Numbered from the stretch's first letter, positions 4,066 through 64,000 are shown. The stretch is DNA of 64,000 nt from Selaginella moellendorffii (GCF_000143415.4 NW_003314273.1:1188074-1252073); one strand, 5' to 3'. Made by a program: numbers and translations. Notes: generated from the letters alone by a model not told the origin.

Positions 4066-4892
4066 AATTTTTCCTTTCCAATTTGCCAGCTTACCTCATC
4101 TATCTGACCAACACTGCCTTGGCTTTAGCTAACTTCCCTCGCGAAGGTTCCCACCTACTATACCATCTCCTACTTGGTTTAAGCTACTCACTGCACGAGC
4201 AACAAAGCGTTAGTGGGGCACCACTCCACATGAGCCGGGAGCACCGCAGTTGGTTTCCCTTCCGGGAGTGGGAGCTGCTCTTGAGCACTTCCTTGGGTGG
4301 CCCCTCCAGCACCACCTGAGTCCATGCTCACTCCCACCCAAGGCCCCTCGGTCCCAGTCTCAACCTCAAGTTAGTTTGGAAGCACCACTAGAGAGTTCGT
4401 TCGAGACTGGTTCCTAGACCTCACTATCCCTACTATACTTTTGGAACACCCTGCAGCTGCCCCCCCCCCCCCCCCCCCTTGAAAGACACATGCTTTAAGC
4501 TTTCACCCCACGACCCGTATTAGTATTTGGACTCGATCTCGGACTTGACTTCGGACTCAACTTCGTACTCGGCCTTGGACTCGATCTCGAACTCGACTTC
4601 GGGCTCGACTTCGGGCTCGACTTCGGACTCAGTTTCGGACTCGATCTTGCACTCGGTCTCGGACCCAATATCGGATCTTAGACTCGGTCTTGGACTCGGT
4701 CTTGAACTCGGTCTCGAACTTAGTCTCGGAGTTGGTTTCGGACGCGATTTTGGACTCGGTCTCAAACTCGGTCTTTGAGTCGGTCTCGGACTCGATCTTG
4801 GACTTAGTCTCATCTGATAAACTCTTTATCATTTTGGTCATGCCTTCGGGGATCCTTTAGCCTTCGACACCTCAGGGAGTCGGTTCCTTACA
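4066..4892 (-). repeat. Family A LTR (central copy)
   Basis: Homologous to 21470-22449 and 58256-58542. Begins TGTAAGG on the minus strand, next to a purine-rich PPT-like tract (4893-4905). The left boundary is approximate. Confidence 0.75.
4528..4812. repeat. Hexamer tandem array (GACTCG/GTCTCG-type) inside the LTR
   Basis: Clear 6-bp periodicity; the same array occurs at ~22110-22370 and ~58256-58462. Confidence 0.9.
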
Positions 4893-5329
4893 ACTCCACC
4901 ACCTATAGAAGAAGTTTGATGCCCATATCGAATGCCTCTTTTTAATCCAACAACTTGTTGACCATGTCTCCTTGGGCATCCCCCCACTTAGCGGTGTGCC
5001 TAAGTTAGCCTCCCCAACCAAGAGCCCATGACAATGGAATATAGGTTTCCCTATACCCCTCACCTCACTATGCCCTAGTATGGGGTTGGGACTTGAACCC
5101 AGCCTTGCTTTACTAGGGGTTTGGGATTTGAACCCAACCTCCATAGAATACGTCTATGGATTCGACATCCCCGCGGGGAGTCAGGCGTAATTCCCTACGC
5201 CTGGTCGACCTAGCTAACCCATGTTAATTAGCTTACCTTCGGCATGCCTTCAAGTCCCAACATATGCCATTGCTCAACTTCACAACTTGATACTTTTAAT
5301 TGAACTTTGCATAAGTACATAGAGTTCTG

Positions 5330-5662
5330 CCATGTAGAAATCCTCCACTATACCTTGTGTGTTCGCAAGGTTCTCCTCTAGTTCCTATGTTGCTTTGCAG
5401 TGTGGAAATCCTTTCCACTTCACATGGACTCTCTCACCTCGTGTCCTTGTCGTTTGCTCTTGCGTGCATTGAGGATGGCCTCGACTTCATATTCCTCTTC
5501 CCCTTGGATAACCTTAGGTAAAGGTCTCACTTGGTCCTTGCAAAGCAGATCCTCAAAGTATAGCTTGAGTAGGTTTACAAGGAACACTGTGTGCATTGTC
5601 CCCATCTCTCAAGCAAGTTGGAGGTGGTAAGCCACTTTACCGATTCATGCCTCAATCTCATA
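5330..5662 (-). pseudogene. Integrase C-terminus/chromodomain remnant of family A
   Basis: HTVFLVNLLKLY...EEEYEVEAILNARK, then VKWKGF in a shifted frame. The upstream integrase sequence continues at 20227. Confidence 0.8.
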
Positions 5663-5686
5663 AAGCTCTATTTTGTTAAAGTGGGA
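5663..5686 (+). repeat. Left terminal inverted repeat
   Basis: AAGCTCTATTTTGTTAAAGTGGGA matches the reverse complement of 20203-20226 at 23/24 positions. Confidence 0.92.
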
Positions 5687-6323
5687 TTTATTCAGTAAAA
5701 TGGGACTAGGTACAAATTTTCAAGTATTTGAAAATGACGTGAAATTATATGTTTTTTGTCTAGGGGCTAGACATATCTAGGGCATGGTGACTAGCGCGGT
5801 GACTTTGTGTCCAGACTGAGTCCATCTGGTTGTATAATAAATCTCATTGTCAAGGTGAACAAGCCGAATCTAAAGCTAAAGAAGAGCGATGGCATGCGCG
5901 CACACACTATTTGTTTGTTCATTGAGCGTATGGTGAGCTTTCCAAGATGAACGTCATTCCTATTAGCCAGACATATAACTTAATGGTGAGAACATTTAGA
6001 TATTATTCAATGTTATCTTTTTCTAACGAATCTAATTGTGAAGGTGTAGCAAGAGGCATTGCTAGTCTGGAGAAGTCATTTAACTCATTTGACCCTTAGT
6101 GTATTTTCATGAAACTAAATAACATTCATATTATTAAGGAATTTCTCTAGTACCTTTTTTTTACGACATAGAGTCTTGCATTTCTTTCAAAGGTGATTTA
6201 GTAAAAGGCCTGAGGGCACATGCCATTCTATTTCTCAGACCGGTATTAAGATATACTAGTGCAAAGGGGAAAAAGGTATTTGGTGATCAAGTAAATGGCA
6301 TGAGGGCACACGCCATTATAAGC

Positions 6324-6580
6324 CTAAGCGCTAGTGGACACCTCCTTTTTGGTACTCTCAGCGGTACTATCATCCTTCTCTGGGTCAGTTGTTTTGCTTT
6401 GGATTGTTGTCTCTGACGTTACTGGGGCGTTCTCGATAGTTGTTAATGTTGCCGTTTGTTCAGAAAAATGATCACCTGGAGTATAGTACGGGGAGTTTGG
6501 AAGACTTATATATTCTACATCTTCACCTATCTCCTTCTCCGTCTCCTTTTCTGCCTCACTTACAGATTTTGTGCTTGCCA
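6324..6580 (-). CDS. Possible acidic/Thr-rich 3' exon or small ORF of the transposon
   Basis: Open frame MASTKSVSEAEKETEKEIGEDVE..., co-oriented with and downstream of the transposase. No recognisable domain. Confidence 0.3.
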
Positions 6581-7308
6581 TGAGAACGCTCTTCACCCTA
6601 AAATATGGAGTTCGTTGTGTTATAAAAGGAAACCAACACACACGCTGCAAGGGAATGATGGTACATAAAGCACGTAAGCCCACAATATGGGTTTATGTGC
6701 CATTAATATGGGCCACACGCCATATTATTAGATTTATGCACGTGTGATTGGTAAATGCATATGTCACATCATCTTTGTTTTACCTCACACACTATATCAG
6801 GCCTAATGAACCATATCACATGTGCGCACATGCTATATATATGGAGAAGTATTATGCAAGGATAGAAAAATTCAATGCATGATTGTGGAGAGCAATGGCA
6901 TGAAGCCACATGCTAAATAACATTTTAGAGAAAGAATTAAAATAGAAACATACAAACAGTACTGAGTGGACCAAGACTTAGAAGTGCACAATTGAATGAG
7001 GTATTTCTAATAAATATTTCACTCACCTCATATAGGAATGGCTACCACTCTCAAATGGCGTATCGCCTCATGCCATCACCTCGCAATTTGTTATAACAAT
7101 CCGATGAATTCATATTCGGCTTGTTCACCTTGAACTTTAAGTAAGATTTGCTAGAACAACTAAGAATTTATACTTGTTATTTGTATCATCTCACCTAGGA
7201 ATGGCATAAGGCCACATGCCATCACGCCTCCTCTAATTCAGATTCGGATTGTTCACCTTGAAATAAAATACATTAGAAACTTAGTAAAGGAATATTAATG
7301 AATCTCAC

Positions 7309-10075
7309 CTTGAACCCGGGTTATGAATGCCCTTGCTGCATCTCTTGCATGGTCTGGCAAGGTGATGGTGGCACTCTACTTCCGCATCCAACCATGCACA
7401 ACATTATCCACCGATATGCTCATGCTGGGATCCCTTGGATTCAGCACCCATCTCTTTTCTAGGCAATCCTTCGTATATCCGGAACTTGGCTTGAACCACT
7501 CCACAGTTACATTGAAGGAGTTAGTTTCCGCATCCTCCTCTGCATCAGTGATGCAGCGCCCCACCCATATCATTTGTTTTTTATTACTGGGTCTGACAAG
7601 CACGACCATTCCTTTGCAGACCTGTACTGGATTGAATGCTGAATCCGGCTTCTTGTTCCTCGGCCCACAATAGTGATCCTCAACATCGTTATCTGTCACT
7701 GCATTTCCAGAGGACATTGTTCCGCTACTATCTGGTGCTCTGGGTTCTGGCCAAAAGGACTCTTCCAATTCTTCATATACAACCGGCCCATTTTGGATAG
7801 CAGATATAATCTTCTCCCAGTATTCGAGCAAAGGCTTGCATCTCTGAAAATAGGATTCTCCACCAAACACCAACCCCCTCTTCCAGAAGGCAATATGCTG
7901 TCTAATCCTGGCCACTATACTTTCCTGGTCTTTGAGTCCATCCGGGTGCATCGGCCGTGGGGAACCCTGAGGAATCATAGGTTCCCCAGTTATGGGATCT
8001 CTCTTGAAAAGTTCAATGCCGTCCACTGGCAGCCACACTGTGTCCCATTCTCTCATCTTGTACCTCATCACTGGAGCACCGTCACACATGCTGAAATGAA
8101 ACTGAAGAGGCTTGGAGTGGCCAATCAACATTTCAGATCCGTCCCTGATGTAGCCTCTTACAAACCCCTTAAAGTCTGGAACCTCTGTCACAAGTGCAGC
8201 TTCAACAGTGCCTTTGATGCAATTTTGGAATTCATCGTAGAATTGTGGGAGGGTGAGGACATTAGATCGCCAGAGGGACTCTGCCAGGTGACTGAACATG
8301 GCATCGATGTCTTCATGAGTGTGCCCAACCATGAGAAAGCCAAGTGTAACCGTTTCAAATATGCCTTTGGCAACAAGCATCGCCAAGTACGCGAAGCCGT
8401 ACATGTTTTTGTTCTCACTGCCAGCATTGTCTGTTTGGAGCAGAAGATGGGGTGGAAGGCCACATCGGCCGCAAGAACTTCCTTGAGATTCTGCTTCGTT
8501 TGGATGAGGCTGTGCATTCACCGGGCGACCAGCCTCGTCGGAATGCCATGAGGCCTCACGTGATAACCCTACAATCTGACGGCCAACATATTCACTGGGA
8601 TGGCATGNNNNNNNNNNNNNNNNNNNNNNNNNNNNNNNNNNNNNNNNNNNNNNNNNNNNNNNNNNNNNNNNNNNNNNNNNNNNNNNNNNNNNNNNNNNNN
8701 NNNNNNNAATCATCATATTTGCACCCCCGCCACCCCATAGAGGTACAAAGAAGTCCCATAGTTCTGGGCACCATGCCCATGAGCGATTATGCCAAATAGA
8801 GACACAGGCAGCTGCATGGATGAAGAGATTGCCTTGGGGGCAGGATTGAGTCGAGGTAAGCACGTCTTTTTCTGGTCCATTTTGTCGTGGATGATGCAGA
8901 GGTAAGAGTCAAGTCTCTCTATGGAGAGAATCCTGTTATGATAATATGCAGTCCTGCAGCTTCTCTGCTCGATGTTGTGGTCGAGCTACCTTCTAACCAA
9001 CGTCTCTCGCTCTTGAGCGATGCAAGAATTCTTCGACAAAGCCATTTTGATAGCAATGCACTCGTCACACTTTGAAAAGCTGGAGTACTTTCCTATACTC
9101 ACATCCCTGAACCTGTTTCTCCACAATCTACTAAATCTAGATTGGCTCAGCTTCCTGTAGCCATTACTCTGGAGTTCCCGATTCACATCTTCCAATATGG
9201 CCAACTTGGTATACATGGAAGGGAGAACTCGTTGGGTGTCTCGAGTTCCATCTTCCAAGAGGCGGGTTTTATGTGGTTGCTGCTCGGTACATGTCTCGAC
9301 AAACCTCTTGAAGATTGCCTCTCCATATACAACATGACCCCTGGTTTTGTGAGTACCGTCGTTCCCATGGACTGCCTGTTGAACCCTTTGTTCCTCGAAC
9401 TCAGTTTTGATTATGTAGAATGTGGTTCGAGGGACTCCATAAATGATTCTCCATGCCTTCATGCAGACCAAACCCCTCTGGAAGACCATGCCCCCCACCT
9501 GATGTTCTGAAGCATCAACAAATGACCGTAATGCCTCATACACAAAATTGCGAGCTGCCTTCTAGGACAATGTCTTGTATCTTGCTCTCTCCTCTTCAAT
9601 AGCATCCCAATCAGCATGTTGACAGCACCTCCTCTTGCAACAAGCAACTGTCGAGACCATTCGAACCTCCATCGCCATTTTCTGCCTTTTCGGTTCGTTG
9701 CTCAGATCCCTTTGGCTGCGCTTTAGGAAGGTGTACTTTCTTTTCCCATGAAGAGATGTTATGTCATCAGTTGTAGTGGTGTTTGATTGTGAATCCTTCA
9801 CATTCTCAAACACTAAGTGCCTCAATTTCCACCGCACAATGCTTCCAATAGTCAGACTGTTTTCTTCTGTGTCAACAACCTCTAAAATCACAACTCCAAT
9901 ATCATCCCAGCCCAATTCTTGATTAGCAACCGCATCTCTTGGATCGACAACTATGGCTAAGCCCTCAGCTACCACCTCCCCCTCGGGGTTGTTTAGAAAC
10001 ACCTTTTCCTGAATCCATGTAGCACGGTTCTTAAGATCCACAGAGGGAACATGCATCGCACTTGCGGAGGCTATT
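7309..10075 (-). pseudogene. DDE/D transposase, Sola-like/DUF7869-type, disrupted by 3 in-frame TAGs, a frameshift near 8754 and an N gap
   Basis: Motifs in order: CCKRRCC, VCMKAWRIIYGV, FSKCDECIAIK, YLCIIHDKMDQKKTCLP, LLLQTDNAGSENKN, FLMVGHTHEDIDAMFS. Splice acceptor at 10076-10077 and donor at 7308. Family recognised from memory of the motifs. Confidence 0.85.
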
Positions 10076-10227
10076 CTGAAAGTGCAGAAAAGAAGTTAAG
10101 ACCATACAAAAAATGATTGGAGAATGGCCTAAATCATAACATACCAAACAACCTCAATAGCATGAGGCCACATGCCATTATTCAAACATGCTATTGACAC
10201 CCATGTGAAATTTCGCATTCACAAAAT

Positions 10228-10552
10228 TGGCATGAGCCCTCATGCCATTAGTGGTACCACTAATGGCATGAGGCCTCACGCTATCTTTGGCCCCTGCTAG
10301 CCTGTTGCTATATTCCNNNNNNNNNNNNNNNNNNNNNNNNNNNNNNNNNNNNNNNNNNNNNNNNNNNNNNNNNNNNNNNNNNNNNNNNNNNNNNNNNNNN
10401 NNNNNNNNNNNNNNNNNNNNNNNNNNNNNNNNNNNNNNNNNNNNNNNNNNNNNNNNNNNNNNNNNNNNNNNNNNNNNNNNNNNNNNNNNATATAGGCAAA
10501 GGATATGGCAATAGGCTAGCAGGGGCCAAAGATGGCATGAGGCCTCATGCTC
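10228..10552. repeat. Nested inverted repeats/hairpin around an N gap
   Basis: 10228-10283 is a near-perfect palindrome centred on GTGGTACCAC. 10264-10316 is the inverted copy of 10501-10552. Confidence 0.85.
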
Positions 10553-10890
10553 ATCTTGATAAACACACAGCTACAGGCAGGTAAAGAAACTATTGGCAAT
10601 ATGCTAGTGATGAACTTGCAAGCCCCAAGATGGCATGAGCCCTCATACCATTAGTGGTACCGTAGCGCCACTCGCACCACCGCAACTGCTCGTAGCGCCG
10701 CTCGCACAAACTGCCACTCGCATAAACTGCCGCTCGCAATGGCGCTCGCAATGCCGCAACCGCTCGTAGACGCATAAACCACAGCTCACAATGCCGCTTA
10801 CACAAGCAGCGCTCACTGCGCTCAGCGGAACCAAGAACACGGCGCACAAAAATGGTAGACCTAGGAATGAGTTCGAGAATTCAAAAATAA

Positions 10891-12822
10891 CACACGCTTG
10901 AACGTCACATCAAATCCTCTGACAAACCAGATCTTATGATTCGTCTGACAAATTTTAAACTGAGTAGCTTCTAGACTTTGCTGTCGGACGTTGAACTTTG
11001 TCACATCATGTCCTTGCCTCGATCCAGCTGTGCCATGTCAGTGATTCGAACTTTGCCATGCCATGTCAGCGATCCGCGCCAAGATTATTCGCCGTGTAAA
11101 GGAATAATTATGCTGTGTGTGTACGTCCATTTATGGCAATATAAGGCCACACGCCATTCAAAGAATAATGCTAGTCGAGCATTTTTTGGTGCATTTTTGG
11201 GTTCAAAATTGCATGAGCCCACACGCTATAAAGTTTACCTGTACCAAAAATAGAAACAGCTTTATTTACTTGGGAATTTAAGTGGTTGAGGCATTTTTAA
11301 ACTTACAAACACATGCCCTACTTACATTCCTTTGGTTGCTTAAAATTCAAAAATATTATAAACTTTTCTTTTTGCATTTTCAATGTTTTCAATTATGGTT
11401 TTTGATTTTCGCAGGACCAGCCTAGTAATCTATTTGCATCCCGTCATGTTTATAGCTAGCTTTCGTTTGTCCCCTTCGCTAGCCTGAGATACATCTGCTC
11501 GGCATCTGCCTCTTACAGCATTTGCCCAGAAAGGGCATCTTTCTTCACGCAGCATTTGCCACATGTTTAGGGTTTAGGGTTTAGCAATTCAGTAGCTTGA
11601 TAAACATGCAAATACAGAACTTGATGCAAAATCCTTTGATATGTCACAATGCCCCTAGGACCATAAACACATTTCAATAGAGAGGGTCCTTTCATTTCAT
11701 AACTCCTTACGTAGATCTTGGTGAAACCAGAGTTAGTGAAGTTAGTTTCTTGTGATCCCGCATCTGATTGTGATGTCCCTTTGCAGTGTCGATGGAAAGG
11801 TCAATGCACACCAAACTGTAAAATCTTGGAGCAAAATAACGGTCGGATCTATGGCAAATGCCCTTGAAACATTGTAAGGCTCGTGTGGTCTCATGTGGTG
11901 TCCAATCGAGATGCTTCTTTGCAGGGTCATCAAGAAAGACATTGTATACCATTCTGTAAAATCTAGTTGCGATCTAACGGCTGGATCTCCAGAAAACTCA
12001 AAAAAATCTCGCGCGTGTCAGAATATTCTAGGAATATACTCCTATGTGCCCCTTAAAATGGCATGCGGCCCCACGCCATTCAAGAGATAACGCCAGATGA
12101 CACCGAGCATTTTTTGGTGCATTTTTTGGGATCAAAATTGCATGAGCTCACACGCTTGAACGTCACATCAAATCCTCTAACAAACCAGATCTTATAATTC
12201 CTCTGACAAATTTCAAACTGAGTAGCTTCTAGACTTTGCTGTCGGACGTTGAACTTTGTCACATCATGTCCTTGCCTCGATCCAGCTGTGCCATGTCAGT
12301 GATTCGAACTTTGCCATGCCATGTCAGCGATCCGCGCCAAGATTATTCGCCGTGTAACTGCTCGGCATCTGCCTCTTACAGCATTTGCCCAGAAAGGGCA
12401 TCTTTCTTCACGCAGCATTTGCCACATATTTAGGGAGGGTTTAGGGTTTAGCAATTCAGTAGCTTGATAAACATGCAAATACAGAACTTGATGCAAAATC
12501 CTTTGATATGTCACAATGCCCCTAGGACTATAAACACATTTCAATAGAGAGGGTCCTTTCATTTCATAACTCCTTACGTAGATCTTGGTGAAACCAGAGT
12601 TAGTGAAGTTGGTTTCTTGTGATCCCACATCTGATTGTGATGTCCCTTTGCAGTGTCGATGGAAAGGTCAATGCACACCAAACTGTAAAATCTTGGAGCA
12701 AAATAACGGTCGGATCTATGGCAAATGCCCCTGAAACATTGTAAGGCTCGTGTGGTCTCATGTGGTATCCGATCGAGATGCTTCTTTGCAGGGTCATCAA
12801 GAAGGACATTGTATACCATTCT
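10891..12822 (+). repeat. Internal direct duplications in the intergenic region of the transposon
   Basis: 10891-11099 matches 12149-12357, and 11495-11955 matches 12358-12822, both near-identical. Confidence 0.9.
11566..11584 (+). promoter_or_regulatory. Short plant telomere-type repeat (telo-box-like)
   Basis: TTTAGGGTTTAGGGTTTAG; duplicated at ~12429-12451. Confidence 0.55.
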
Positions 12823-13483
12823 TTATTTAGCTGAACATCTGGCATTTTTGGAAATACAAGATGCTTTGGAATATCCAATCATGCATGGTATAAATATAGC
12901 GAGGGTATTAAATGATATCCCAATCATGATCTTTCTTTTGGATTTCGCGTGCATGCAGTCTGAGGAATGATGACGTTGCGGATTTTTTTTGGATTTCACG
13001 TGCATGCATGCGCGTGGCGATCCAGAAATTAATGGTGGCGCCCAAGTCCGAGGAATGATGACGTTGCGGGATTACCAACCGTCGTGACATTTCGCGCGTG
13101 TGAGGTTAGGTTTTGCATTTTGCTTCGTACTCGCGCTCGCATCGCGCTCCCACTCGCGATCACGCTCACATTCGCGCTCATCTACCTTCTCTACAGGTTT
13201 CTCGTGTGCATCGGCATCCACTCGCGCTTACATCACACTCGCGCTCGCATCGCACTCGTGTGCATCGGCGTCCACTTCAAGACACACCCAGTTTGTAACT
13301 TCGCCGCCAACTCTGCCGCCCACTCCGCCACCCACACGCAGCCCACTTGGCGTCCCGGGAGATTTCAGCACCACTCTCCAACTGTAAGTGGCAGAGTAGC
13401 CTTGTTGCTACGATCCACTGCACAAACAGTGCACATTCGCCAGCGAGTCCGGCCTCGATTGTCACGCCTCCATTCGGCTTCAA

Positions 13484-16400
13484 ATGGTAAGTCTTTTAGG
13501 CCAAGTAGAAAATGGCATGAGGCCACATGCCATTCAGTAGCAACATTGGCATACACCGATTGGGCTCTCGAGTGCAGTCCGGTTACAGATGGCGTGTAGC
13601 CTCACGCCATCTTAGGATGCAGCCTCAAGACATCTGATGTAGTGGTGAATAGCGTGTGGCCTCACGTTATTTCCAGCTGCTAGCTTTTCATCTGTCAGCT
13701 CTAATTGTTGTGCATTTCTGAACAGGCGAGGAATTGCGTTCTTCTTCCAGCCACTGTCAATGTGGATGCAGAGAAGGGGGAGGAGCTCACCAGTTGGACT
13801 TTCGGGATGGAAGGCGAGGATCTGAGGCTGTACAACACAGATGGTGGGAGAAAAGAATGCATGGGGATCCTCATCCAAGTGACAGACACTCCATGCAGTT
13901 CCATGCAAGAATATGGACTGGCACTTGTGGTAGAAACAGCGTCTGCCTTCAAGATCCACCTTGCACATCCTAGCGGCTTCCCGGAGGGGGGCAGCGGCTA
14001 TGAGGAATTCCTAGAGGGAGCTAGGGAGAGGTTGTCCAGGAGGCCCACAATTTCAAAGATGCTGCGGTACTATGAAGATCACATGGAATCCACGGACCTC
14101 ACCTACGGCGATGTTCAAAAACTATATTCCAACATTGAGCTGTTGAGAGTGACTCCAGTTCGCGAAGCAAAGGGGAAGGGGGTCGATCTGGAAACTACCC
14201 CGAAGCAGAAAAGGGTGGTCAAGCTCAAGCCGACGTCCGACTCTCCTGCTCCAAAAAAGAAGCTACTCGGTGATGCCATTGCCTCGGGTTCGAACACTAC
14301 ACCCACCAAAAGGAAGAGCCGCAAAGAGCAGAAAGAGCAAGAAGAGGCAGCAAAAATCGTCGCAGATAATAGTACTTGTTACTATTCCAACAAAGTATAT
14401 ACAATCGACGTGAGCCACATCGACATCCAAAGCAAATACAACCACAGGCTAGTATCTGATGAGTGGGTGGAGAAACTGAAGCAGAAGATGCTGGCAAGTC
14501 CAGTAACACCTGACATCGCAGACGTGATCCCCTACTACCGAACAATAAAGGGCGAGATGAGGTTTCCAGACTTGATCAATAGGAAGGTGTTGGACGATCA
14601 GAACATCCGGTTCTATGCCGTCTCCGGGCAGCATTCTAGCTTGGCGATACAAGAGATAGTTGTGGATATTATGGTGGGCGAGGAGGTGAAGAAAGTCTTC
14701 AAGACAAGAGTTGTCTACCTGATAAAAGGCAACTCGCCCCTCCGATCTATCATATACATCTCCCACGCGCAGAATGTCAAGCAAGAAATGTGCTACAAAT
14801 CGGGTCTGCACGAGACATTGGCACGAACATGGAAGCTCTGGGTTCAACTAAAGAAGCCACAAAAACCAGGACAAGGACGTGCACTAGCAACTAGCGCCTG
14901 GCAGGTAAGCCTCGTTGCATGTGGCATAGCATGTGGCCTCACGCTATTTCCATTGTAGGAATTCTCGAGTCTTCTCTCGAAAACACTAGGGGTCAATGAC
15001 ACACTCAGCATCCATAACATTCTACTCGTGATAAAAGTTGTTTTTGACAAATGGGTAGATGTGTTGAGGAGGTACCATGACGGGGAGTTGCTAAACTCAA
15101 TGGGTGTGGAGGACGGCCGGAAGCCCAATGATTTGAAGCTCAATGCCTTGCGTTTCTCACGGTCTTTAGATGAGGACGACCTTCTGACAGTGGCTAATGC
15201 TCTTCTACGTGGTGAGGTAGTCTTCAACAAGACCAAAATGACTCCCGGCCATATTGTGACATACGAGGACTTGTGCACGACTCTGAGAGCTCGTGCGCTA
15301 TTGAAGGATTGGATCTTCGAGCAAGTGGCCATGGAGAGGGTGAGCATTGACATCACGCAAGAGATGATGGAAGAGCTGGAGTTGTCAAATGAAGACATCG
15401 ACGAGTACGTGAAGGGGGCCCCCAAGTTCATTAATCTGCTGCGGGATGCCACGAAAAGTAAAGCTGAGAAGTTGGATCAGTATCCAAATTTCATTAAGAG
15501 GGATGTCGACCGCCGGCTTCAGAAACAGCTCGACCCCGCAGCAGAGGCCTATCGAGAACCTTACCGGGTATACGTGAATTCGGATGAGGATCATAGGTGG
15601 AGGAGCATCGTTTCCCGCGGAGATGAGCAGGTCAAGAACATCTTTTGTGTGATGGACTTCACAAACGAGGAGATCACTCATGCAGACGAAGTCAGCTCCA
15701 TCATTGATTTAATGGTGGGACTTGCGGAGGTGGAATCTTCAGTCCATTATATGATCTACGACTCCGAATCCTATCACAAGTTCTAGAAGGCCTTGAACGA
15801 GGTGAAGGCTCGGTTGAAAGGCAAGGAGATGCGGGAGATCCATGGGATAATGGCTAAGAAGAAGATACCGACGAATGTCCGCATCTTCACACTCGCCCTT
15901 GTTATTGGTCCTGCAACAGAGTGGGACTGGAGTGACTTCCCAGCTTCGTTCGACAAGGCCGATCGAATTGATCTGAGGGAGGTCAATTTACCCGTGCCTG
16001 AGGAACTGAAGACGGCTATGGAGCTTTCGAATCCAGAGAAAGCTCCAGGTGCAGCATGGGAAATGCTCAACTGGGTCTTCAACGCAATAGCGGGTGGGTC
16101 ACCTGCTTCCGACTCCAAGGGCAAATGCGTTGTCGAGTACAATTGCGGCGGACTATTCTTTCGAGCCACACTACTCAAGGGTGTCCTGTGTGTTGTGGTG
16201 ACAAACTCCATTGAAGAGGTGACTTCAATGGAGCATATAATTACAGTTGCCAAAGAAAAACAGTATCTTCTCTGCGAACCTGGTGAGTACGCACTTTAAG
16301 TTTAAATGTTATCTCACAAGCTCTGTATGCAGGAGCGTGGCCACCCCCAGATGCTGAAACGGCGTTAATAGCTACTGTTGAAGATACCCATGTTGGGCCG

Positions 16401-19400
16401 AGCTCACAACCTGCACAAGGTAAGGTCACGTGAGGCCTCATGCCATTTTGATTATAGATCGTTGTGAATATTCAGACACGAGGACTGAAAAGCGCACTAG
16501 TGGCGCGTCGAAGAAGGACAAACAGACAAGCAATAGGAAAAAAGGAGGTACAAATTATATTTGCAATGGCGTGTGGTCTTATGCCATTCCTTGCAGGAGA
16601 CACTTCTTCAAAGGCAAAACAGGCAAGCACAAGCCAAGTACAACGGACGAGAGGTACCAATCATTTTTGTTATACGTGAATTCTCATGCCATTGCTTCTT
16701 GCAGCTCAAATTCCAAAGAGATTAGGGCAAGCAGCGCAGACCTCACGACAAGAACCTGAAGGTTTGATGGCGTGTGGCCCCACGCAATTAACTAATGTTC
16801 TTGCAAATCGTGTCGAGGAAATCGAACGGAACAACGTGCCTCTAGTGGAGGAGGGGGAGGCCTCGGAGAGTGATAAGGAGAGTTCCGAAACAGGTACGAT
16901 CATGACATATGGCCCCATGCACTTATCTAAGTTTGTATTTCAGGGGAACAAGTTGAACCAATGGAAAACTTTATGAAAGGTAACTTAAAAATATTATGGG
17001 ATGTTGCATGTGTTGATGCAATAATATACAGTTCAAGTGCCAAGGAGACGTCGTGAACCTCGAATTAGGCTACCTGCAAAATAGCTTTCAGATGCTGTAG
17101 ACAAAGAGATGGATAACCAACCAGGGCAGAGGAGGAAGGGTAAAAGCATTTGTGTGCTTATTGCGTATGTCCTCATGCTATTTCTATAGAACGGGCGCAT
17201 AAGAAACGAAAGCGAAAGGGAATTGAGGAGCAGGCACCTGAGGATGCGGAAGGCACGACAGAGCCTCCAAGGACGGGAAGTAAAGCGTCATGGTTATTGC
17301 GTGGGTCCTCATGCCATTTCTTGCAGATCAAGCTCAAACTGACAGTGGTCATAAAAAGCGAAAGCACGTTGGACAGTCGTGGGGATCAGAGGCGTTTGAT
17401 TCGAAAAGGAAGAAGGGCAACGAAAAGATGATAGGTAATGCCTCGCGGTTATGGCGTGTGTGCTCATGCCATTCATTGCAGATCAAGGGCTGAGTGAAAG
17501 CAGCCAGTCACCACCTCCTGACTCAGATTCCTATGGCAGACTCCCCTTCCCCAATCTCAATGGAGAGGTACAATGGATGAGGGATGCTTTTCAAGTCAGG
17601 GCCACGTTTTTCTCATCTCATCGTCTTTGAAGGGTGCAAGAATGTGCAGAAACCATGTTAAGACAGTCGGGTGAGGATACGGTCCTAGGTCATGCACTAA
17701 AACAGGCTATGGATGTCTTGTATTTTGAGATGGAGACTCGGCCAGATGATTTTCCCAAGATGGTCCTGGAAGAACAAGCCATCCAGCCTGAGCAGCCTAT
17801 GGAAGAAATGCAGGAGGGGGATGAGGAGCCAGAGAAAGATAATGAGCAGGAAGAGCAGAAGGACGAAGAGGAGGACGAAGAGGACTTGGATGGTCCTCAC
17901 AATGGTGACGATCACAATAACGACGATGACCATGATGACGACAATGGCCAACCTGAGGTGGCCAAAGAGCAGCGGAGGAAGGTCATACAAGACAAACCAT
18001 CAGGTAAATAATAGTACATCCATTCCTAACCTTTTACCATTTCTAACATTGTCCATGTAGGTCGCAGAGCAAATGGTAAGTAGAGATTATTCAGTTGAAT
18101 TAAGATACAAACTCTAGCCTTTAGTGTCGAGGAAGGATAGTGCCAAGCAAGGGTCGAAACGTATGTCCAATCCTTCAGAATCAGCAGTGCGCCTAAGTGA
18201 TATCGGTCCTAGTTCCTCAATAGCAGTTGATGGTAAATACAATATAGTCGATTCAATATGCTAATGAGTTTGTTTTTAGTAGCACGGAAGGATACCATCT
18301 CAATCGAAGGGAGATATTTGGACATGCATATGGAACCGCCAGTGGACTCTACTTGCCTGCAAGAGTCATCAGAGCTGGTGGAGGCTACTATCCATATCAA
18401 CGCCAAGCAAGCTGACCACGCTCCACTTGATGCTGCCCATACCACTGAGTCAATCTTGTCCATGTATCCAACTGACGGTGACCAGGCGCCATTGGACCCG
18501 CATGAGGCCGCCCCAGCCGCCGAGCCGGTCGTATCCTCATTTCCAACGGACTCAACGTGTGCCCAATCGTCTGACTACGCGCCGTTGGAACCTCCCTACA
18601 CCGCCCCTGCTGCCTGTTCGATCATGTCCACTTTGCCAACGGAGGCACTAGCTGAAATGGCGTGTGATCACACGCCATCGGAACCACCCCATGCCACTGT
18701 TGAGCCAGTTGTACCAGAGTCTACAACTGAAATGGCATGTGCCCACACGCCATCGGATGCGATTGACCCCACATTGCAGATGAGAGTATTTCCGCCTTTC
18801 ACGTTTCCTTGACCAAAACCCTCTCAACGACCATCGGGAGCACCATTCGCTAATATTGTAGATGGTAAAATTGACTTGTACCATTTTTTATGCTGACACA
18901 TTTCATTTCAAAGTCACGGCGAAGGTACTGTATCGTTTTTGATCTGAACGGTGTCCTTTTCTCCCATGAGCGTGGCTCGTCCTCGAATGTCACTGCACCC
19001 TCCAAAGCATGCGGTCGCAAGTTGGTCAAAAGAGACAAATTCACATTAATCACACGGGAGAAACTGCAGGATCTAATAATGACCATGCAACACTTAAAAC
19101 AGAGGGCCGGGTTCAATTTGCAATTGGGAGTTTGGACATCCATGATGCGCCACAATGCATTAACGTTGCTACAGATGATGCACGATCAGATGTGAGTAAT
19201 ATTACCATTTGACTTTCTCCTAACGCAGGAGGATTGCTTGACTATGGTCCATGTGAGGGGTAGCAAGCCCATCTTCGTCAAGCCAGAGGCTGTAGTGATG
19301 AACCGGACTGCTAGGTCAAGTGAAATCCTCATCATCGATGACTCGTCGATTAAAACTGCAGCGAACACGCACACATATGCAGTGCACCCCATCTCTTGCA

Positions 19401-19774
19401 GTATGGAAACTAGGGAGAAGAAACCGTATGTTCTGGGGGACCTTGCAAAACGGCTTGGAGCGATGGTGATAGAGAACCGGCCAGTCCAGGAGGTGGCTGC
19501 AGAAATCAACCAAATGGCAAATGGAACGGTATATCAGAAGCCATTTGATCGGACAAACACTAGTCATCATTTATGGCATGTATATTGTCTAGCCAAGCAC
19601 TATCCGCATCTCCATAATCTGCTCAACCGGATGGGTTCTTCGACCACTGAACATGAGCGTGGACATATTAGAGAAGAGATGGCATTACTATTGGGTTTAA
19701 ATCCTAATAGTGTGGAGAGTGATGAAATTCCAAGATTATTGTATAGGTGTTGGAAGCAAAAAATAACAGTCTGA
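13484..19774 (+). pseudogene. Multi-exon transposon cargo gene (~1,750 aa): ParB/Srx-like, degenerate MTase-like, low-complexity linker, FCP1/NIF HAD-phosphatase-like
   Basis: ATG at 13484, then frame-preserving GT-AG introns: 13487-13725, 14905-14958, 16283-16332, 16420-16475, 16548-16596, 16654-16704, 16762-16806, 16894-16943, 16980-17031, 17140-17189, 17280-17326, 17435-17481, 18004-18060, 18076-18124, 18233-18279 and 18865-18911. Five in-frame stops. Two acceptors are mutated here but intact in the copy at 61176-64000. Confidence 0.8.
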
Positions 19775-20202
19775 GATGGCATGTATTTATTTAAAAATGT
19801 AACTTATTATGGCATGGGGTTCCATGCCATTGTATTAATATTAAAAGACAATTCTTTGAGAGGATTTGCATTATACTAGAAGTGTTACAGCATGTTACAA
19901 CATGTTATTGGAAGTCTACGAAGTTGTTTTATTAATAAGGGGAAAGTAAAGATTGAATGGGGACTTGGGCTCCATCTAAACTCGGAGCAACTGAGCCAAT
20001 ATTAAAAGGATGGAAAGAAATTGGACGACGATGACAAGGAGAAGAGAGAGGTGAAGCAGTGGCAGGGGGAGGAGAAGTGATTGAGTAGACATTTCCTTAT
20101 TTAAAATAAAATGGCATGTGCCTCAATGCAGTTGAATTTTGTTATATTTATATACTATATAAAGGTTTGGAAACCTTATTTTACAAGTGGGATAATGACA
20201 AT

Positions 20203-20226
20203 TCCCACTTTAACGAAATAGAGCTT
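20203..20226 (-). repeat. Right terminal inverted repeat
   Basis: TCCCACTTTAACGAAATAGAGCTT, the inverted partner of 5663-5686. Confidence 0.92.
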
Positions 20227-21450
20227 CATAAGGCCCCACGAACCTGCTTAAGGAACTCAAGATCAGTTCATTTCCAGGAATACATGCATTTTTACCTTTG
20301 GGTAAACTTTCGGCTGATCCCACTTGGTAGCCTTAGGTTCTTAGTGTTCAGCCACACCTTCTCCCCAGGTTGGAACTCTACGTCCCGACGCTTCTAGTTT
20401 GCATACTTGGTTTGCCTTTATTGAGCCCGTTCCAAGGAATCCCTCACTAGATTCCAAATGTTGAGCCTTTCCGCCATGAACGCCTTCACTGCAAGTAACT
20501 CTCCATGATACTCGGCCATGCCGAGTTTCACAAGATATTCAATAGCCTGCCCATTGATGACTTCCCATGGATTCACCCTGATACTCGAGTGTGGTGAGTT
20601 ATTATAACACATTTCCACAAATCTCAAATAACTTACCCAATCGGTCTGGTCCTTCAAGACATAGCATCACAAATAATCCTCCAATTGCCTATTCACCCTT
20701 TCTGCTTGTCCATCTATCTGTGGGTGATAGGCTGTACTGAATTTCAACTTAGTGTGATATTGTTCCAAGAGAGTTCTCCAGAACCTACTAGTGAAGATCT
20801 TATCTCGATCTGAGATAATCTCTTCTGGCCTTTCCCGCATTCGAACCACTTATTTGAATAACAACTTCACCACACCTTCGGCATCCACTTCTGTTATGGT
20901 GGGTATGAAATATGCCATCTTCGAAAATCGGTCCACCACCACAAATATTGCATCGAACCCCTCACTTGGGGGGAGTCCCATGATGAAGTCCATCGTAAGA
21001 CATTTTCACGGACGATCTGGAATTGGGATGCTTTTTAACAAGCCCCCACTAGCTTTAGTCACGGCTTTGACCTGTTGATATATTGGACATCCCTTTACAT
21101 AGTCTTGGACGTCCTTAGCCATATCTGGCTAGTGATACTTCCTCTTATGTAAGCCCATCATCTTGGGCACTCCACCGTGTCCCGCAAGAGGTCCATCATA
21201 ACACTCTTCTAAGGCTACCTTCCTTAGTTCCCCTTCTGGAACATACACCCTTGTTTGTTTATAATAGATGAGTCCATTGTGTTCTGCATAGCTTGTTTTC
21301 TCTTCCATTGGCAGCTCACCTCTTTGGTGAGCTTCTCGCGCCTCCAGGTTCATCAGCAACACTGCTTATGCTAGACCATTATTCTCATACACTGTCTGCA
21401 CATCATCCCAAAAGGTTGCTATCGTGCTGGATATCACCAGCTTTAAGCTT
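20227..21450 (-). pseudogene. Gypsy integrase remnant (family A)
   Basis: ECYDGPLAGHGG; IISDRDKIFTSRFW; STAYHPQIDGQAERVNRQLEDYL. Confidence 0.9.
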
Positions 21451-27100: not shown

Positions 27101-28368
27101 AATTTTCGATCTCGATCTCTTGAGCCGTACGCTGTAGTGCCACAGCATCTAGCTCTTCCTCTTCTGACTTAGCCTTAGCCTCTTCCGCAGCATCTCTAGT
27201 AATAGTTTCCTCCTCTCGATTTGCCCATCTAGATGTTTTAGAGTCATCAGTATGGCTAGCTGCATGTATGCCTCTTTCAGTAACTGAATATGCATACAAT
27301 GTTCTTACCGAATGGTGCAATCCATCTAATCCTCCACAAGTCGCTTTGGATCTACTAAAAAAGTCTCTACGTATGCAACTTGAGTCAGAAAATCCAACAA
27401 AAGTTGGATAGGAATTGTTGAGACAATCCCTCTAATACCAAATGTAGCACACCTAAATTTGGAGCTGCACTCCAAGCCAGTTACGCTACAAAACAAGGGT
27501 CCAGTACAATCCCATGACCACCAGCTCCCCGTATCCAGCACTTGCACGCAAAATGGTGTCAGATGGAGTTTGGCGCAATTTTGGCATACCAGTTGCCTAA
27601 CACGAGGAGGAGCATACCCCACCAACTAGAGTAGCATGGAGCTTGGGCTTAAACCCAAGATGGACACAAAACAAAGAGCGACATAGCTCAACGGGAGCCA
27701 AACTAATATCTCAAATGGTCAGACATGCATTCCAACCACTATCCCTACTATACAATTGGAACCCCGTACAGCCCCCTCCCCCCCCCCCAAGGAACACACG
27801 ATTTGGGCTTTGGGCTTTCACTCCAAGCCTCCCTTAGTACTAGGAGTTAGTCTCTAGGACAAGCTCGAAACTTATTAAATATGGAATGTTCCTAGATTGC
27901 AAATTTGGATACGGGATGCACACCATTGTGTTCAAGCCAATCTTTACATTCTGTAGATATGCCAAATGAGCAAATCTAGACACTTTCCATAAATAGCATT
28001 TGGAACTGAAATAAGACCAACACAAAGGGTATGATAGTGAGGGTGTTTGGTAGACACAATAAGCTATCATTCAGCGATATTGAGGGAATAGTCTCAATAC
28101 GTGGGGGTTCTTGATACTAGCAACTGCAAGACAATGACACAAGTTTCTCAAACTAGGCCAAGTATACATAGCAAGAAACATATAGGGTTCCTACCTTATG
28201 TTTATCCAATTTAAGTACAAGGTTATTCACCAATTTCTCAACTAGCTCAAGTGAGAACAATAAAGGGAACCAACTGTATTGACCTTCTACCATCATGGCA
28301 GTAAGGAAAAAGTGTCCGTAAAGATTTGCTGACAATTATTTTTTGATACCTGAAGTCACATTTGCGAC
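24176..28368 (-). mobile_element. Truncated gypsy element (family B): 5' LTR 28368-27443, PBS 27440-27430, gag, protease, RT, RNase H
   Basis: PBS TGGTATTAGAG; gag KPPNFRG...LEDWVYDIENYF; protease MIDTGATHSVI; [10 protein letters not shown]; RNase H HCDAFGYAIGAVLQQ. Confidence 0.88.
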
Positions 28369-31300: not shown

Positions 31301-32050
31301 GACTACCTAACTACAGTAAAAATACCAAGCCAATACACCACCTCTAAGCAACATAAACAATTTGTCTTGGAGCAAGACCATATTTAGTTGTGAGAGGAAG
31401 ACTGTGCAAGTTAGGATGAGAAAATGTACTATGAAGATGTGTACAACCAAAAGAAACTCAAAATTTATTTGAAGAAGCTCACTACATATAAACAAGAGGA
31501 CACTTTGCAGAAGAAATCACAACTCAAAAGATTTTACAAGCAAGATTTTAGTGGCCAATGCTCTAAAACAATTTAAAATTTTTTTTACAAGAATGTGACA
31601 TTTGTCAAAGAACTAATATGCACTGAAAAAGCAAATTCAAAAACTTCATCTTATGACTCCTTTCGAACCATTTGAACGATAAAGACTCGACTTTACGACC
31701 ACTTACAACAAATTCTAAGTGAAAGAAGTACATCCTTATACCTACTAACTACATGACAAAATGGACTAAAACTCAACAAATGAGGGTTATAACAATGAAG
31801 AACATACCAAAACTCATCTATAAAAACATTATCACAAGGTATGGTTTATCTCAAAAACTTATTACAAATTAAGGAACATACTTCATCAATGAGACCATCA
31901 ACATTTTGACTCAAAAGTTCACAATCAAGCACAAAGATTTAACACCATACTATCCTTAAGAAAATGGTCAAGTCAAATCTATAAACAAGACCCTCAAGAA
32001 GTTCATGAAGACAAATAAAAAAGACTGAGACGATTGCATTTATAACGACT
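28369..32050 (+). mobile_element. Highly decayed A-rich gypsy pol (protease, RT, RNase H, integrase)
   Basis: Residual motifs FSGYNQV (~30270), NYTTT..EAL.MVYAL (~30990-31040) and GHFAEEITTQKILQA (~31500). Possibly resumes at ~33780-34100. Confidence 0.75.
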
Positions 32051-32690
32051 TGTAGACATATGACTTTGGGTGTCAAAAGTTACCTGTCGATTAATCCTTT
32101 CGAATATTCTTTCTTTACTACCATGATGGCAGAATATCGGTATTATTGAACCCTTTATCAGTGCTTCTTGTTCAAGTGCTAATAAACTGGGCTTAGCACC
32201 TATACTTAGCAAAATGAATAAAAAGTAAGAACTTCTATATATTTTTTGCTGAGCATAGTCGACTTAGCTTTTAGTTCTCTTTTACTCTGTCTTGCACTAG
32301 TTTGACAAGAACCCTCATGTATTAAGATTAGTCTCTCAATATTGCTGAATGATAGCTTATTGTGTCTACCAAACACCCTTATTATCATGCCCTTTATGTT
32401 AATCTTATTCAATCTTAATTGCTATTTATAAAAAGTGTCTAGATATGCTAATTTGGCATATTTATGGAATGTAGAGATTGTTCTAAACACAATGGTGTTA
32501 GTCCCGTGTCCAAATTCACAATTTAGCACCATTCCATAACTTTCAAGCTTATCCCAGAGACTAACTCCTAGTACTAAGGGTGGCTAAGGGTAAAAGCCCA
32601 AAGTATGTGTTCCTCAAGAAGGGGGGGGGGGGCATTGTTTGGGGTTCTAAATGTATAGTAAGTAGGTTGAGCATGGCCAACCAACCTGAG
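32051..32690 (+). repeat. Family B LTR, inverted relative to 27443-28368
   Basis: Its reverse complement aligns with ~27740-28368 (e.g. cccttagtactaggagttagtctct and gggtgtttggtagacacaataagctatcattcagc). The right boundary is approximate. Confidence 0.85.
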
Positions 32691-36582: not shown

Positions 36583-36682
36583 NNNNNNNNNNNNNNNNNN
36601 NNNNNNNNNNNNNNNNNNNNNNNNNNNNNNNNNNNNNNNNNNNNNNNNNNNNNNNNNNNNNNNNNNNNNNNNNNNNNNNNNN

Positions 36683-61175: not shown

Positions 61176-64000
61176 TCAAGCAATCCTCCTGCGTTAGGAG
61201 AAAGTCAAATGGTAATATTACTCACGTCTGATCGTGCATCATCTATAGCAATGTTAATGCATTGTGGCGCATCATGGATGTCCAAACTCCCAATTGCAAA
61301 TTGAACCCGGCCCTCTGTTTTAAGTGTCGCATGGTTATTATTAGATCCCGCAGTTTCTCCCGTGTGATTAATGTGAATCTGTCTCTTTTGACCAACTTGC
61401 GACCGCAGGCTTTGGAGGGTGTAGTGACATTTGAGGACAAGCCACGCTCATGGGAGAAAAGGACACCGTTCAGATAAAAAACGATACAGTACCTTCGCCG
61501 TGACTCTGAAATGAAATGCGTCAGCATAAAAAATGGTACAAGTCAATTTTACCATCTACAATATTAGCGAATGGTGCTCCCGATGGTCGTTGAGAGGGTT
61601 TTGGTCGAGGAAACGTGAAGGGCGGAAATACTCTCCTCTGCAATGTGGGGTAAATCGCATCTGATGGTGTGTGGGCACATGCCATTTCAGCTGTAGACTC
61701 TGGTACAACTGGCTCAACAGTGGCATGGGGTGGTTCCGATGGCGTGTGATCACACGCCATTTCAGCTGGTGCCTCCGTTGGCAAAGTGGACATGACCGAA
61801 CAGGCAGCAGGGGCGGTGTAGGGAGGTTCCAACGGCGCGTAGTCAGACGATTGGGCACACGTTGAGTCCGTTGGAAATGAGGATACGACCAGCTCGGCAG
61901 CTGGGGCGGCCTCATGCGGGTCCAATGGCGCCTGGTCACCGTCAGTTGGATACGTGGACAAGATTGACTCAGTGGTATGGGCAGCATCAAGTGGAGTGTG
62001 GTCAGCTTGCTTGGCGTTGATATGGATAGTAGCCTCCACCAGCTCTGATGACTCTTGCAGGCAAGTAGAGTCCACTGGCGGATCCATATGCATGTCCAAA
62101 TATCTCCCTTCGATTGAGATGGTATCCTCCCGTGCTACTAAAAACAAACTCATTAGCACATTGAATCGACTATATTGTATTTACCATCAACTGCTATTGA
62201 GGAACTAGGACCGATATCACTTGGGCACATTGCTGATTCTGAAGGATTGGACATACGCTTCGACCCTTGCTTGGCACTATCCTTCCTCGACACTAAAGGC
62301 TAGAGTTTGTATCTTAATTCAACTGAATAATCTCTACTTACCATTTGCTCTGCAACCTACATGGACAATGTTAGAAATGGTAAAAGGTTAGGAATGGATG
62401 TACTATTATTTACCTGATGGTTTGTCTTGTATGACCTTCCTCCGCTGCTCTTTGGCCACCTCAGGCTGGCCATCGTCGTCATCATCGTCGTCGTCGTTAT
62501 TGTGATCGTCACCATTGTGAGGACCATCCAAGTCCTCTTCGTCCTCCTCTTCTTCGTCCTCCTCTTCTTTGTCCTCCTCTTCGTCCTTCTGCTCTTCCTG
62601 CTCATTATCTTTCTCTGGCTCCTCATCCCCCTCCTGCATTTCTTCCATAGGCTGCTCAGGCTGGATGGCTTGTTCTTCCAGGACCATCTTGGGAAAATCA
62701 TCTGGCCGAGTCTCCATCTCAAAATACAAGACATCCATAGCCTGTTTTAATGCATGACCTAGGACCGTATCCTCACCCGATTGTCTTAACATGGTTTCTG
62801 CATGTTCTTGCACCCTTCAAAGACGATGAGATGAGAAAAACGTGGCCCTGACTTGAAAAGCATCCCTCATCCATTGTACCTCTCTATTGAGATTGGGGAA
62901 GGGGAGTCCGCCATAGGAATCTGAGTCAGGAGGTGGTGACTGGCTACTTTCACTCAGCCCTTGATCTGCAATGAATGGCATGAGCACATACACCATAACC
63001 GCGAGGCATTACCTATAATCTCTTCGTTGCCCTTCTTCCTTTTCGAATCAAACGCCTCTGATCCCGACGACTGTCCAACGTGCTTTCGCTTTTTATGACC
63101 ACTGTCAGTTTGAGCTTGATCTGCAAGAAATGGCATGAGGACCCACGCAATAACCATGACGCTTTACTTCCCGTCCTTGGAGGCTCTGTCGTGCCTTCCG
63201 CATCCTCAGGTGCCTGCTCCTCAATTCCCTTTCGCTTTCGTTTCTTATGTGCCCGTTCTACAGAAATAGCATGAGGACATATGCGATAAGCACACAAATG
63301 CTTTTACCCTTCCTCCTCTGCCCTGGTCGGTTGTCCATCTCTTTGTCTACAGCGTCTGAAAGCTGTTTTGCAGGTAGCCTAATTCGAGGTTCACGATGTC
63401 TCCTTGGCACTTGAACTGTATATTATTGCATCAACACATGCAACATCCCATAATATTTTTAAGTTACCTTTCATAAAGTTTTCCATTGGTTCAACTCGTT
63501 CCCCTGAAATACAAACTTAGATAAGTGCATGGGGCCATATGTCATGATCGTACTTGTTTCGGAACTCTCCTTATCACTCTCCGAGGCCTCCCCCTCCTCC
63601 ATTGGAGGCACGTTGTTCCGTTCGATTTCCTCGACGCGATCTGCAAGAACATTAGTTAATTGCGTGGGGCCACACGCCATCAAACCTTCAGGTTCTTGTC
63701 GTGAGGTCTGTGCTGCTTGCCCTAGTCTCTTTGGAATTTGAGCTGCAAGAAGCAATGGCATGAGAATTCACGTATAACAAAAATGATTGGTACCTCTCGT
63801 CCGTTGTACTTGGCTGGTGCTTGCCTGTTTTGCCTTTGAAGAAGTGTCTCCTGCAAGGAATGGCATGAGACCACATGCCATTGCAAATATAATTTGTACC
63901 TCCTTTTTTCCTATTGCTTGTCTGTTTGTCCTTCTTCGACGTGCCACCAGTGCGCTTTTCAGTCTTCGTGTCTGAATATTCACAACGATCTATAATCAAA
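61176..64000 (-). mobile_element. Second, inverted and truncated copy of the giant DNA transposon (cargo-gene exons)
   Basis: The reverse complement is near-identical to 16447-19241, with the same exons, introns and palindromes. It continues past the window end. Confidence 0.95.

Follow-up and report, generated by a model that had tools for sequence, protein, structure and literature searches.

The DNA considered here is a window of 64,000 nucleotides from Selaginella moellendorffii (GCF_000143415.4 NW_003314273.1:1188074-1252073; one strand, positions counted from its first letter), in which a DNA transposon of 14,562 bp (5664..20225), identified by its terminal inverted repeats (TIRs) and target-site duplication, sits within long terminal repeat (LTR)-retrotransposon-like sequence. 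The element carries a putative transposase gene, a multi-exon cargo gene with a domain that very probably has the ParB/Srx fold, and many copies of a 22-bp palindrome. An initial annotation had proposed such a domain at 14389..14780, within a plant transposon rich in palindromes. The latter is indeed present, being a TIR element with a DUF7869 transposase and 33 palindromic sites.

The cargo gene and its ParB/Srx-like domain

The model of the cargo gene (13484..18060, forward strand, as for all its features below) was built from sequence alone and comprises at least 14 exons, with 1247 codons to position 18060 or beyond. It starts with ATG at 13484 and proceeds through exon 2 (13726-14904), a 54-nt intron and exon 3 (14959-16282) to a series of short exons. 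Borders of the GT-AG type were found in 12 of 13 introns, and for the thirteenth the element's second copy supplies the AG; introns were partly sought near palindromes, and frame continuity backs them. The peptides quoted in the initial annotation sit in one frame at the place given for them, which is exon 2 of this spliced gene: KVYTIDVSHI from 14389, HRL at 14443-14451, ADVIPY at 14518-14535, SGQHSS at 14623-14640 and RVVYLI at 14707-14724. The domain, delimited by the family profile, a homologue model made with AlphaFold2 (AF2), the ESM Atlas and profile-profile comparison, occupies 14377..14880, so that the segment 14389..14780 does belong to it, while its true end lies later, at about 14860-14880. 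Upstream of it exon 2 encodes an N-terminal region and a Lys/Pro-rich linker (13726..14340), and homologues have a similar layout, with a G-F-P-like motif followed by a linker.

A phmmer search of 1.84 billion proteins gave four matches, among which P0006 lies on the ParB-like domain (query 33-180, E 8.5e-4), while P0003 (Selaginella moellendorffii EFJ30523.1) and P0004 fall on the downstream exon; P0005, a repeat-rich bacterial-type protein, was dropped as a chance match. Two profile searches added 2 and 11 more proteins, including those of Calypogeia fissa (CAM6086388.1 and others) and Riccia sorocarpa, and the liverwort/lycophyte family also includes records without an organism name. With a profile made from 11 homologues, the window being excluded, the window's open reading frame (ORF) scored 60 bits (E 2.2e-11 at Z=1.8e9) and was the sole report among 842 six-frame ORFs. 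In the alignment of 12 domains, which leaves aside P0015, P0026 and P0027, the motif F-x-A-x-S-G-Q-H-S-x-x-A and one Asn (N179 of alignment A6, window 14773) are invariant. The residue ahead of helix 1 (14446..14448) is Arg in all eight rows of A6 that cover it and is collinear with the Arg of DGQHR-type proteins; Tyr at 14716..14718 of the present copy is replaced in most contigs by Arg, the near-invariant Arg of the family (R160 of A6). A word-based search with the window alone returned none of 179 candidates, and locus scans with A6 passed none of 11 viral stretches and none of 60 from genomes; one of 23 metagenomic stretches (L001) did pass and was rejected as bacterial intergenic DNA.

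Evidence for the fold came from structure comparison, language-model features and profile-profile alignment. The AF2 model was obtained for the homologue P0022 from 12 sequences (predicted local distance difference test, pLDDT, 66.8; predicted template-modelling score, pTM, 0.62; two of five models above 65). When it was compared by VIA with 48,161 chains, all eight chains with Z≥5 had the ParB/Srx fold and the next row, at 4.7, was unrelated. At the top were pNOB8 ParB-N (Z 9.1, root-mean-square deviation (rmsd) 3.4, 118 residues aligned), SerK (8.1; 3.1, 86) and PadC (7.5; 3.6, 99), followed by Arabidopsis Srx (7.4; rmsd 4.3, 87 aligned), KorB (7.1; 3.0, 93), SbnI (6.7), Atu1540 (6.5), which we take to be ParB-like, and human Srx (5.5). 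Likewise, the first 23 listed rows of a Foldseek search in the PDB all belonged to ParB, Noc, Srx, SbnI or KorB, and the one match out of 500 in BFVD with E≤0.001 was a ParB-like phage protein (E 8.8e-4). The ESM Atlas, applied to the window sequence itself, gave a ParB_N cluster at 0.92 with 136 shared features and 35% of members carrying PF02195, the top clusters (0.96) being unnamed sponge and mollusc proteins. Alignment by hhalign with 87 phage DGQHR proteins reached a probability of 63.5, E 6.8e-5 and a score of 31.7 versus at most 16 for shuffles. The Arg-helix (Box I region) aligned with these proteins even without the motif columns (E 0.0017), and four of the five of them checked by Pfam weakly match ParB_N, GmrSD_N or DndB.

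Several points stand on the other side of the balance, both for the fold and for any function built on it. The modelled protein is a homologue that shares 24% identity with the window; the single-sequence AF2 run on the window itself gave pLDDT 30.2 and no fold. The best Z of 9.1 is barely above the 7-8 typical of unmatched models, and Foldseek found nothing in the PDB at E≤0.001, its best value being 0.015. The DGQHR set was chosen by an IDGQHR pattern resembling the family motif, so part of the agreement in the motif was built in by the selection; once the motif columns were removed, the score fell to 23.9 (E 0.0017), not far from the 21.0 of an unrelated control.

Library searches were mostly negative. 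None of the 12 family members matches PF02195 (ParB_N), the HMMER check proposed with the initial annotation, and no member of its Pfam clan exceeded the cut-off, the weak DndB matches in two of 12 members (best E 0.011) remaining far below it. No ParB match for the domain was found in Pfam, PHROGs, NCBIfam, PADLOC or PDB sequences. Weak library matches to PPV_E1_N, HAD_SAK_1, B12-binding and Cas5d were set aside, having no support from the structure model. Phage ParBs of the GNHT type (47 proteins) aligned poorly, with a probability of 2%, and were rejected as the closest class.

Single scores are modest, and it is the agreement of the three methods that makes the ParB/Srx fold very probable for this domain. 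The proposal of the initial annotation therefore stands on this point, with structural matches found by both Foldseek and VIA, shared Atlas features and a profile-profile match to phage DGQHR proteins of the ParB clan. By sequence comparison the nearest class is DGQHR/GmrSD/DndB-like, not Spo0J-like. With the DGQHR/DndB/GmrSD-like and archaeal pNOB8 ParB-N branches of the superfamily the cargo family shares the predicted core fold and the collinear Arg-helix and G-Q-H; it differs in having Ser for the Arg of GxxR, some 25 extra residues inserted between the strands and no member reaching the Pfam cut-off, and in that the Selaginella gene is eukaryotic, spliced and located in a TIR transposon. 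The best-known eukaryotic bearer of the ParB/Srx fold is sulfiredoxin.

The Box II-like motif S-G-Q-H-S-S (14623..14640) has Ser where GxxR has Arg. This substitution, already pointed out in the initial annotation, is real and family-wide: SGQHS is invariant in 12/12 rows, and among the differences listed between copies none changes the SGQHSS codons. Thus it is a family trait rather than a sign of decay. Box II of ParB-like proteins is GxxR, and exchange of this Arg for Ala abolished nucleoside triphosphate (NTP) binding in the binders, as described in the accessible part of PMC12704722, so that its lack in all 12 members argues against a canonical cytidine triphosphate (CTP) clamp, which we consider unlikely from these sequences. 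Comparison by alignment placed the invariant Asn at a distance similar to that in Box III, with no conserved Glu. The invariant Gly-Gln-His together with the helix-1 Arg and the Asn suggests that the pocket may be retained in an altered form. Pfam scans of cargo exons 2-3 revealed no helix-turn-helix (HTH) and no C-terminal dimerisation family, and the scanned ORFs of the element include none that resembles ParA. The idea of a nucleotide-binding clamp, which accompanied the initial annotation, consequently loses ground. The term "parS-like" can so far be applied to the palindromes only in the sense that they are palindromic and element-specific.

The middle region and the methyltransferase-like tail

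Exon 3 starts with a helical middle region (14959..15630) that has no Pfam match and is conserved in Selaginella P0003, Calypogeia P0019 and P0004/P0010. Since P0019 and P0003 join the end of the ParB domain to this region, the architecture is common to liverworts and a lycophyte. As annotated, the Selaginella moellendorffii proteins P0003 and P0007-P0009 start from the final helix of the ParB-like domain and include the middle and methyltransferase-like regions; possibly they are truncated or domesticated forms.

The rest of exon 3 (15640..16260) resembles N6/N4 (beta-class) methyltransferases in a degenerate form, again with no Pfam match. For residues 190-452 of the homologue P0010 the Atlas gave an N6_N4_Mtase cluster at 0.90, with 159 shared features and 39% of members carrying PF01555, and all 10 family-bearing matches belonged to one clan. 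Alignment by hhalign with 28 beta-class enzymes put motif I in register and gave a best score of 26.6 over 74 columns, shuffles reaching at most 20.2; its probability, depending on the master row, was 0.2, 0.7 or 7.5%, which speaks against the assignment. The catalytic (D/S/N)PP(Y/F) motif is missing in all three sequences compared (window, P0003 and P0010), its position being judged by eye: D-F-T replaces D/S-P-P-Y in the window, which has V-E-Y-N-C-G-G at the S-adenosylmethionine-binding motif. On balance the tail of exon 3 is probably a degenerate N6/N4-methyltransferase-like domain, likely inactive.

The succession of a ParB fold and a methyltransferase-like domain points to an origin in a prokaryotic or phage ParB-methylase fusion. 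Such fusions are enriched in phages, as stated in the available text of PMC12704722, and one of them, gp1 of Mycobacterium phage Vincenzo (AKF14263.1), is encoded beside terminase and ranks 29 among the BFVD matches. It has the same order of domains, and its Box II Arg is also replaced, the motif being G-N-H-T, so that loss of this Arg has a precedent; in contrast to the plant proteins it keeps C-P-P-Y. Compared with phage fusions the plant protein has in addition a helical region of 220 residues and a long charged tail. No phage sequence was matched by P0010 in a tblastn search. Eukaryotic N6-methyltransferases derived from phage ParB-terminase loci have been reported in algae and fungi (PMC4738411), the cargo family not being among them in the accessible portion of that work. 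Liverworts use a beta-class enzyme for N4-methylcytosine (4mC), with no mention of ParB in the consulted part of the Marchantia preprint (10.1101/2021.02.12.428880).

Exon 3 is followed by ten short or low-complexity exons that form a charged acidic tail (16333..18003) and are separated by palindrome-bearing introns. The present copy contains three in-frame stops, at 15784, 17082 and 17628. The first, a premature TAG (15784..15786), is Trp in most contigs (depth 32,875 of 40,390 in run X2; in run X3 a single piece spanning the stretch in full); the second is Gln in the second copy and the third is common to both copies. Relative to most contigs the present copy shows mainly changes of the C-to-T and G-to-A type and, among the differences listed, at least 38 coding changes in 36 codons, 13 of them silent and 23, the stop included, not. 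These changes and the stop mark it as a decayed member. No RNA dataset was listed as containing the stretch, and contigs from runs that we guess to be RNA read through the introns; neither observation has a bearing on expression.

The palindromes, the transposase and the surroundings

The 33 copies of the palindrome (consensus ATGGCRTGWGGCCWCAYGCCAT) lie between 5889 and 20132, in introns, in spacers and near the ends. Each consists of 8-bp arms, with CATG in them, and a 6-bp core centred on GGCC. With up to three mismatches 30 matches were found versus 0.00 expected, and every one of them belongs to the element or to the incomplete second copy. A weight matrix, trained on these same sites, detected 33 sites in the element, nine in the partial copy and none elsewhere in the window (best 3.9 versus a threshold of 8). 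The density is one palindrome per ~440 bp, and the sites are spread along the whole element, between genes and near both ends, without entering the TIRs. The 5,803 bp that are clearly coding contain none of the 33 (P 3e-8), while 10 of the 12 cargo introns tested contain one; two sites belong to an unclassified ORF, which was not counted as coding. This ORF (18237-18812, 191 codons, no Pfam match) is made of a 75-bp tandem unit, each unit with an in-frame palindrome. Positions C5, paired in 30/33 sites, and T7/A16 (33/33) are near-invariant. At the variable pair the arms show no covariation (15/33 Watson-Crick, 10 A-C), and for this reason double-stranded binding sites fit better than hairpins. 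In the region 16283-18060 of the cargo gene 11 phase-1 introns of 45-57 nt follow in a row, most of them being splice sites around one palindrome and little else.

The element is bounded by TIRs of 26 bp (left 5664..5689, forward; right 20200..20225, reverse) that agree in 24 of 26 bases, and by a 6-bp target-site duplication, TCATAA (5658..5663 and 20226-20231), which shrinks to CATA (4 bp) when one more base is counted to the TIR; a single insertion was examined. Its flanks (4591-5663 and 20226-21448) run uninterrupted, near 59,280, in a related LTR-retrotransposon-like copy at 58265-60547. A second copy of the element, partial (61176..64000, reverse strand), corresponds to 16447-19241 at 96% identity and carries nine palindromes; it is broken at the equivalent of 19241 beside retrotransposon sequence, and on the other side it runs off the window. 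One public run contains 26,359 contigs matching the element over 6.9 kb and another 21,764 over 2 kb, numbers that suggest many variant copies in that organism and are not to be taken as a copy number.

The putative transposase gene (7376..10095, reverse strand) encodes DUF7869 (Pfam PF25273, E 1e-37), is spliced and is broken in the present copy. Its protein has a Cys-rich N-terminus and three Asp motifs, picked by eye, that may be catalytic (8895, 8437 and 8326). We found no paper on DUF7869. With Sola DNA transposons the element shares TIRs, large size, relatives outside flowering plants, a candidate three-Asp transposase and a possible 4-bp target-site duplication, as far as the accessible text of PMC10741241 describes them, and differs in that the duplication is also readable as 6 bp. 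The element is putatively "Sola-like", DUF7869 being presumably linked to Sola. Runs of N occupy 8609-8708 and 10318-10489 of the element, one of them in the transposase gene. A third coding region (18875..19774, forward strand) has a NIF/FCP1-like HAD phosphatase fold (Pfam PF03031, E 3e-5, 24.2 bits against a cut-off of 21.8), one in-frame stop (read as X) and the motif D-L-N-G-V-L, in which D-L-N-G replaces D-x-D; it could be either a gene in its own right, the third of the element, or the terminal part of the cargo gene. In the spacer that separates the divergent genes (10891-12825) segments of 209 bp (98%) and 468 bp (97%) have been duplicated recently; a short stretch of TTTAGGG resembling telomere repeats is part of the duplicated unit, and one public contig carries such a stretch as an insert.

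Elsewhere in the window fragments of LTR-retrotransposon reverse transcriptase and RNase H (Pfam RVT_1, RT_RNaseH) occur at 50-1307 and 60548-61157, related copies flanking the element. In AT-rich DNA, long inverted repeats that are 70-88% alike form two nested sets (27544-33362 and 35380-39134); they look fold-back-like or similar to miniature inverted-repeat transposable elements, and a related piece lies at 55513-55880. There are also an open frame of 542 codons with no Pfam match (43016-44644) and host-like genes with WD40 repeats (46935-48671, forward) and MORN repeats (52756-53301, reverse).

Possible roles of the cargo protein

Tentatively, we favour the interpretation that the cargo protein is an accessory site-specific binder of the element's palindromes, keeping the element expressed or mobile. 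We infer that both active sites are remodelled, which makes it likely that the protein serves as a dimer in site-specific DNA binding or as a scaffold, rather than as a CTP-hydrolysing clamp or methylase. The ParB/Srx-fold protein would then bind the element's own 22-bp palindromes, in the manner of VANC and TnpA. It might coat the 33 sites, the short introns allowing such sites to lie within genes, and its charged acidic tail could recruit host chromatin or transcription factors and so oppose silencing by methylation. The closest analogy is offered by VANC of the VANDAL Mutator-like elements and TnpA of En/Spm, which are accessory genes in large TIR elements with a variable multi-exon tail; VANC21 of Arabidopsis binds a motif sited in introns, spacers and ends of its own element, and this short element-specific motif is enriched in introns, intergenic and terminal parts (PMC5735166, accessible text). 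The differences are that VANC has a 9-bp motif in tandem arrays, while the palindrome here is 22 bp long and mostly single, and that the transposases are not alike. The VANC domains DUF1985 and DUF287 have no Pfam match in cargo exons 2-3.

To the cautions about the fold one has to add that the tie between protein and palindromes is co-occurrence in one element and nothing beyond, that the homologues are protein records without DNA context, and that Pfam identified no DNA-binding domain in the cargo protein. The placement of introns was partly guided by the palindromes, though frame continuity supports them, and the transposase is equally plausible as the palindrome binder.

This last point leads to a less probable, still considerable alternative, in which the transposase binds the palindromes and the ParB-fold protein, devoid of site specificity, does another job, such as nucleotide or phosphate sensing, non-specific DNA binding or partnership with the NIF-like phosphatase. 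Transposases have been reported as intrinsic sequence-specific regulators (10.64898/2026.08.24.746577, accessible part), the Cys-rich N-terminus of the element's own transposase and the negative Pfam search for HTH in the cargo protein agree with it, and Srx, SerK and SbnI bear the fold without DNA clamping, as noted in the available text of PMC12704722. However, the sites are distributed element-wide and not at the ends or TIRs, which is the VANC pattern, where a separate accessory gene binds.

It is improbable that the protein acts as a sliding clamp gated by NTP, which would load at the parS-like palindromes, spread and bring the element ends together. The predicted ParB fold, with ParB, Noc and KorB entries heading the Foldseek list, conservation of the helix-1 Arg, Gly-Gln-His and the later Asn, the helical region standing where ParB carries its HTH, and the many dispersed palindromes would suit such a clamp, but against it speak Ser in place of the Box II Arg in every member, given the loss of NTP binding upon its exchange for Ala (accessible part of PMC12704722), the DGQHR/GmrSD/DndB-like nearest class and the negative Pfam results for HTH and C-terminal dimerisation.

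There is hardly a better chance that duplication of introns or mini-elements left the palindromes behind, or that they form RNA hairpins which help splicing, in either case with no protein partner and with the ParB-like gene as a passenger. The 11 phase-1 introns of similar length in a row do suggest serial duplication of an intron-bearing unit; nevertheless these introns are alike in little but the palindrome, sites are also intergenic or close to either end, near-invariance is seen at three positions and the arms do not covary. Least of all can one expect an active enzyme for 4mC or N6-methyladenine that puts its mark on the palindromes, with their GGCC core and CATG arms, and so shields the element from 5-methylcytosine silencing under regulation by the ParB domain, as the alignment of the N6_N4_Mtase-like tail, the phage ParB-methylase fusions (PMC12704722, available text) and the liverwort beta-class 4mC enzyme (10.1101/2021.02.12.428880, accessible part) might propose, since D/S-P-P-Y/F is missing in 3/3, the glycine loop is degenerate and the three sequences disagree at the supposed catalytic site.

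A broader reading, which is doubtful, would extend self-recognition to unrelated large eukaryotic transposons: the plant TIR element, Starships via DUF3723 and the carriers of the sponge and mollusc proteins might share a ParB-fold accessory from prokaryotic mobile elements that loads at element-specific palindromes, in the present case one to an intron, in a parABS-like way and organises the long element for transposition or shields it from silencing. Starship DUF3723 was the best named Atlas neighbour of the cargo domain, ranked third at 0.95 with 184/256 features and 78% of members carrying PF12520, and both are carried by large eukaryotic transposons. Unlike the present element, Starships use a tyrosine recombinase; the homology is one language-model call, and PF12520 gave no match of its hidden Markov model in the cargo family. 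The function of DUF3723 is described as unknown (10.1101/2025.02.28.640899, accessible text), and a Starship preprint likens it, in the part available, to chromosome segregation genes via TIGR02168, not ParB (10.1101/2021.12.13.472469). We found no paper joining DUF3723 with ParB and no description of a ParB-fold gene in a eukaryotic transposon; the words "plant" and "transpos" are absent from the accessible main text of PMC12704722, and supplements, notably its datasets, may mention the family.

If binding of the palindromes by the cargo protein is true, a protein of ParB fold, likely derived from a methylase fusion, would together with an intron-housed array of palindromes constitute a new route of transposon self-recognition, and a binder specific for 22 bp could serve as a tool. 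It makes testable the resistance to methylation of large cargo transposons in seed-free plants, as well as the presence of a ParB fold in DUF3723 of Starships.

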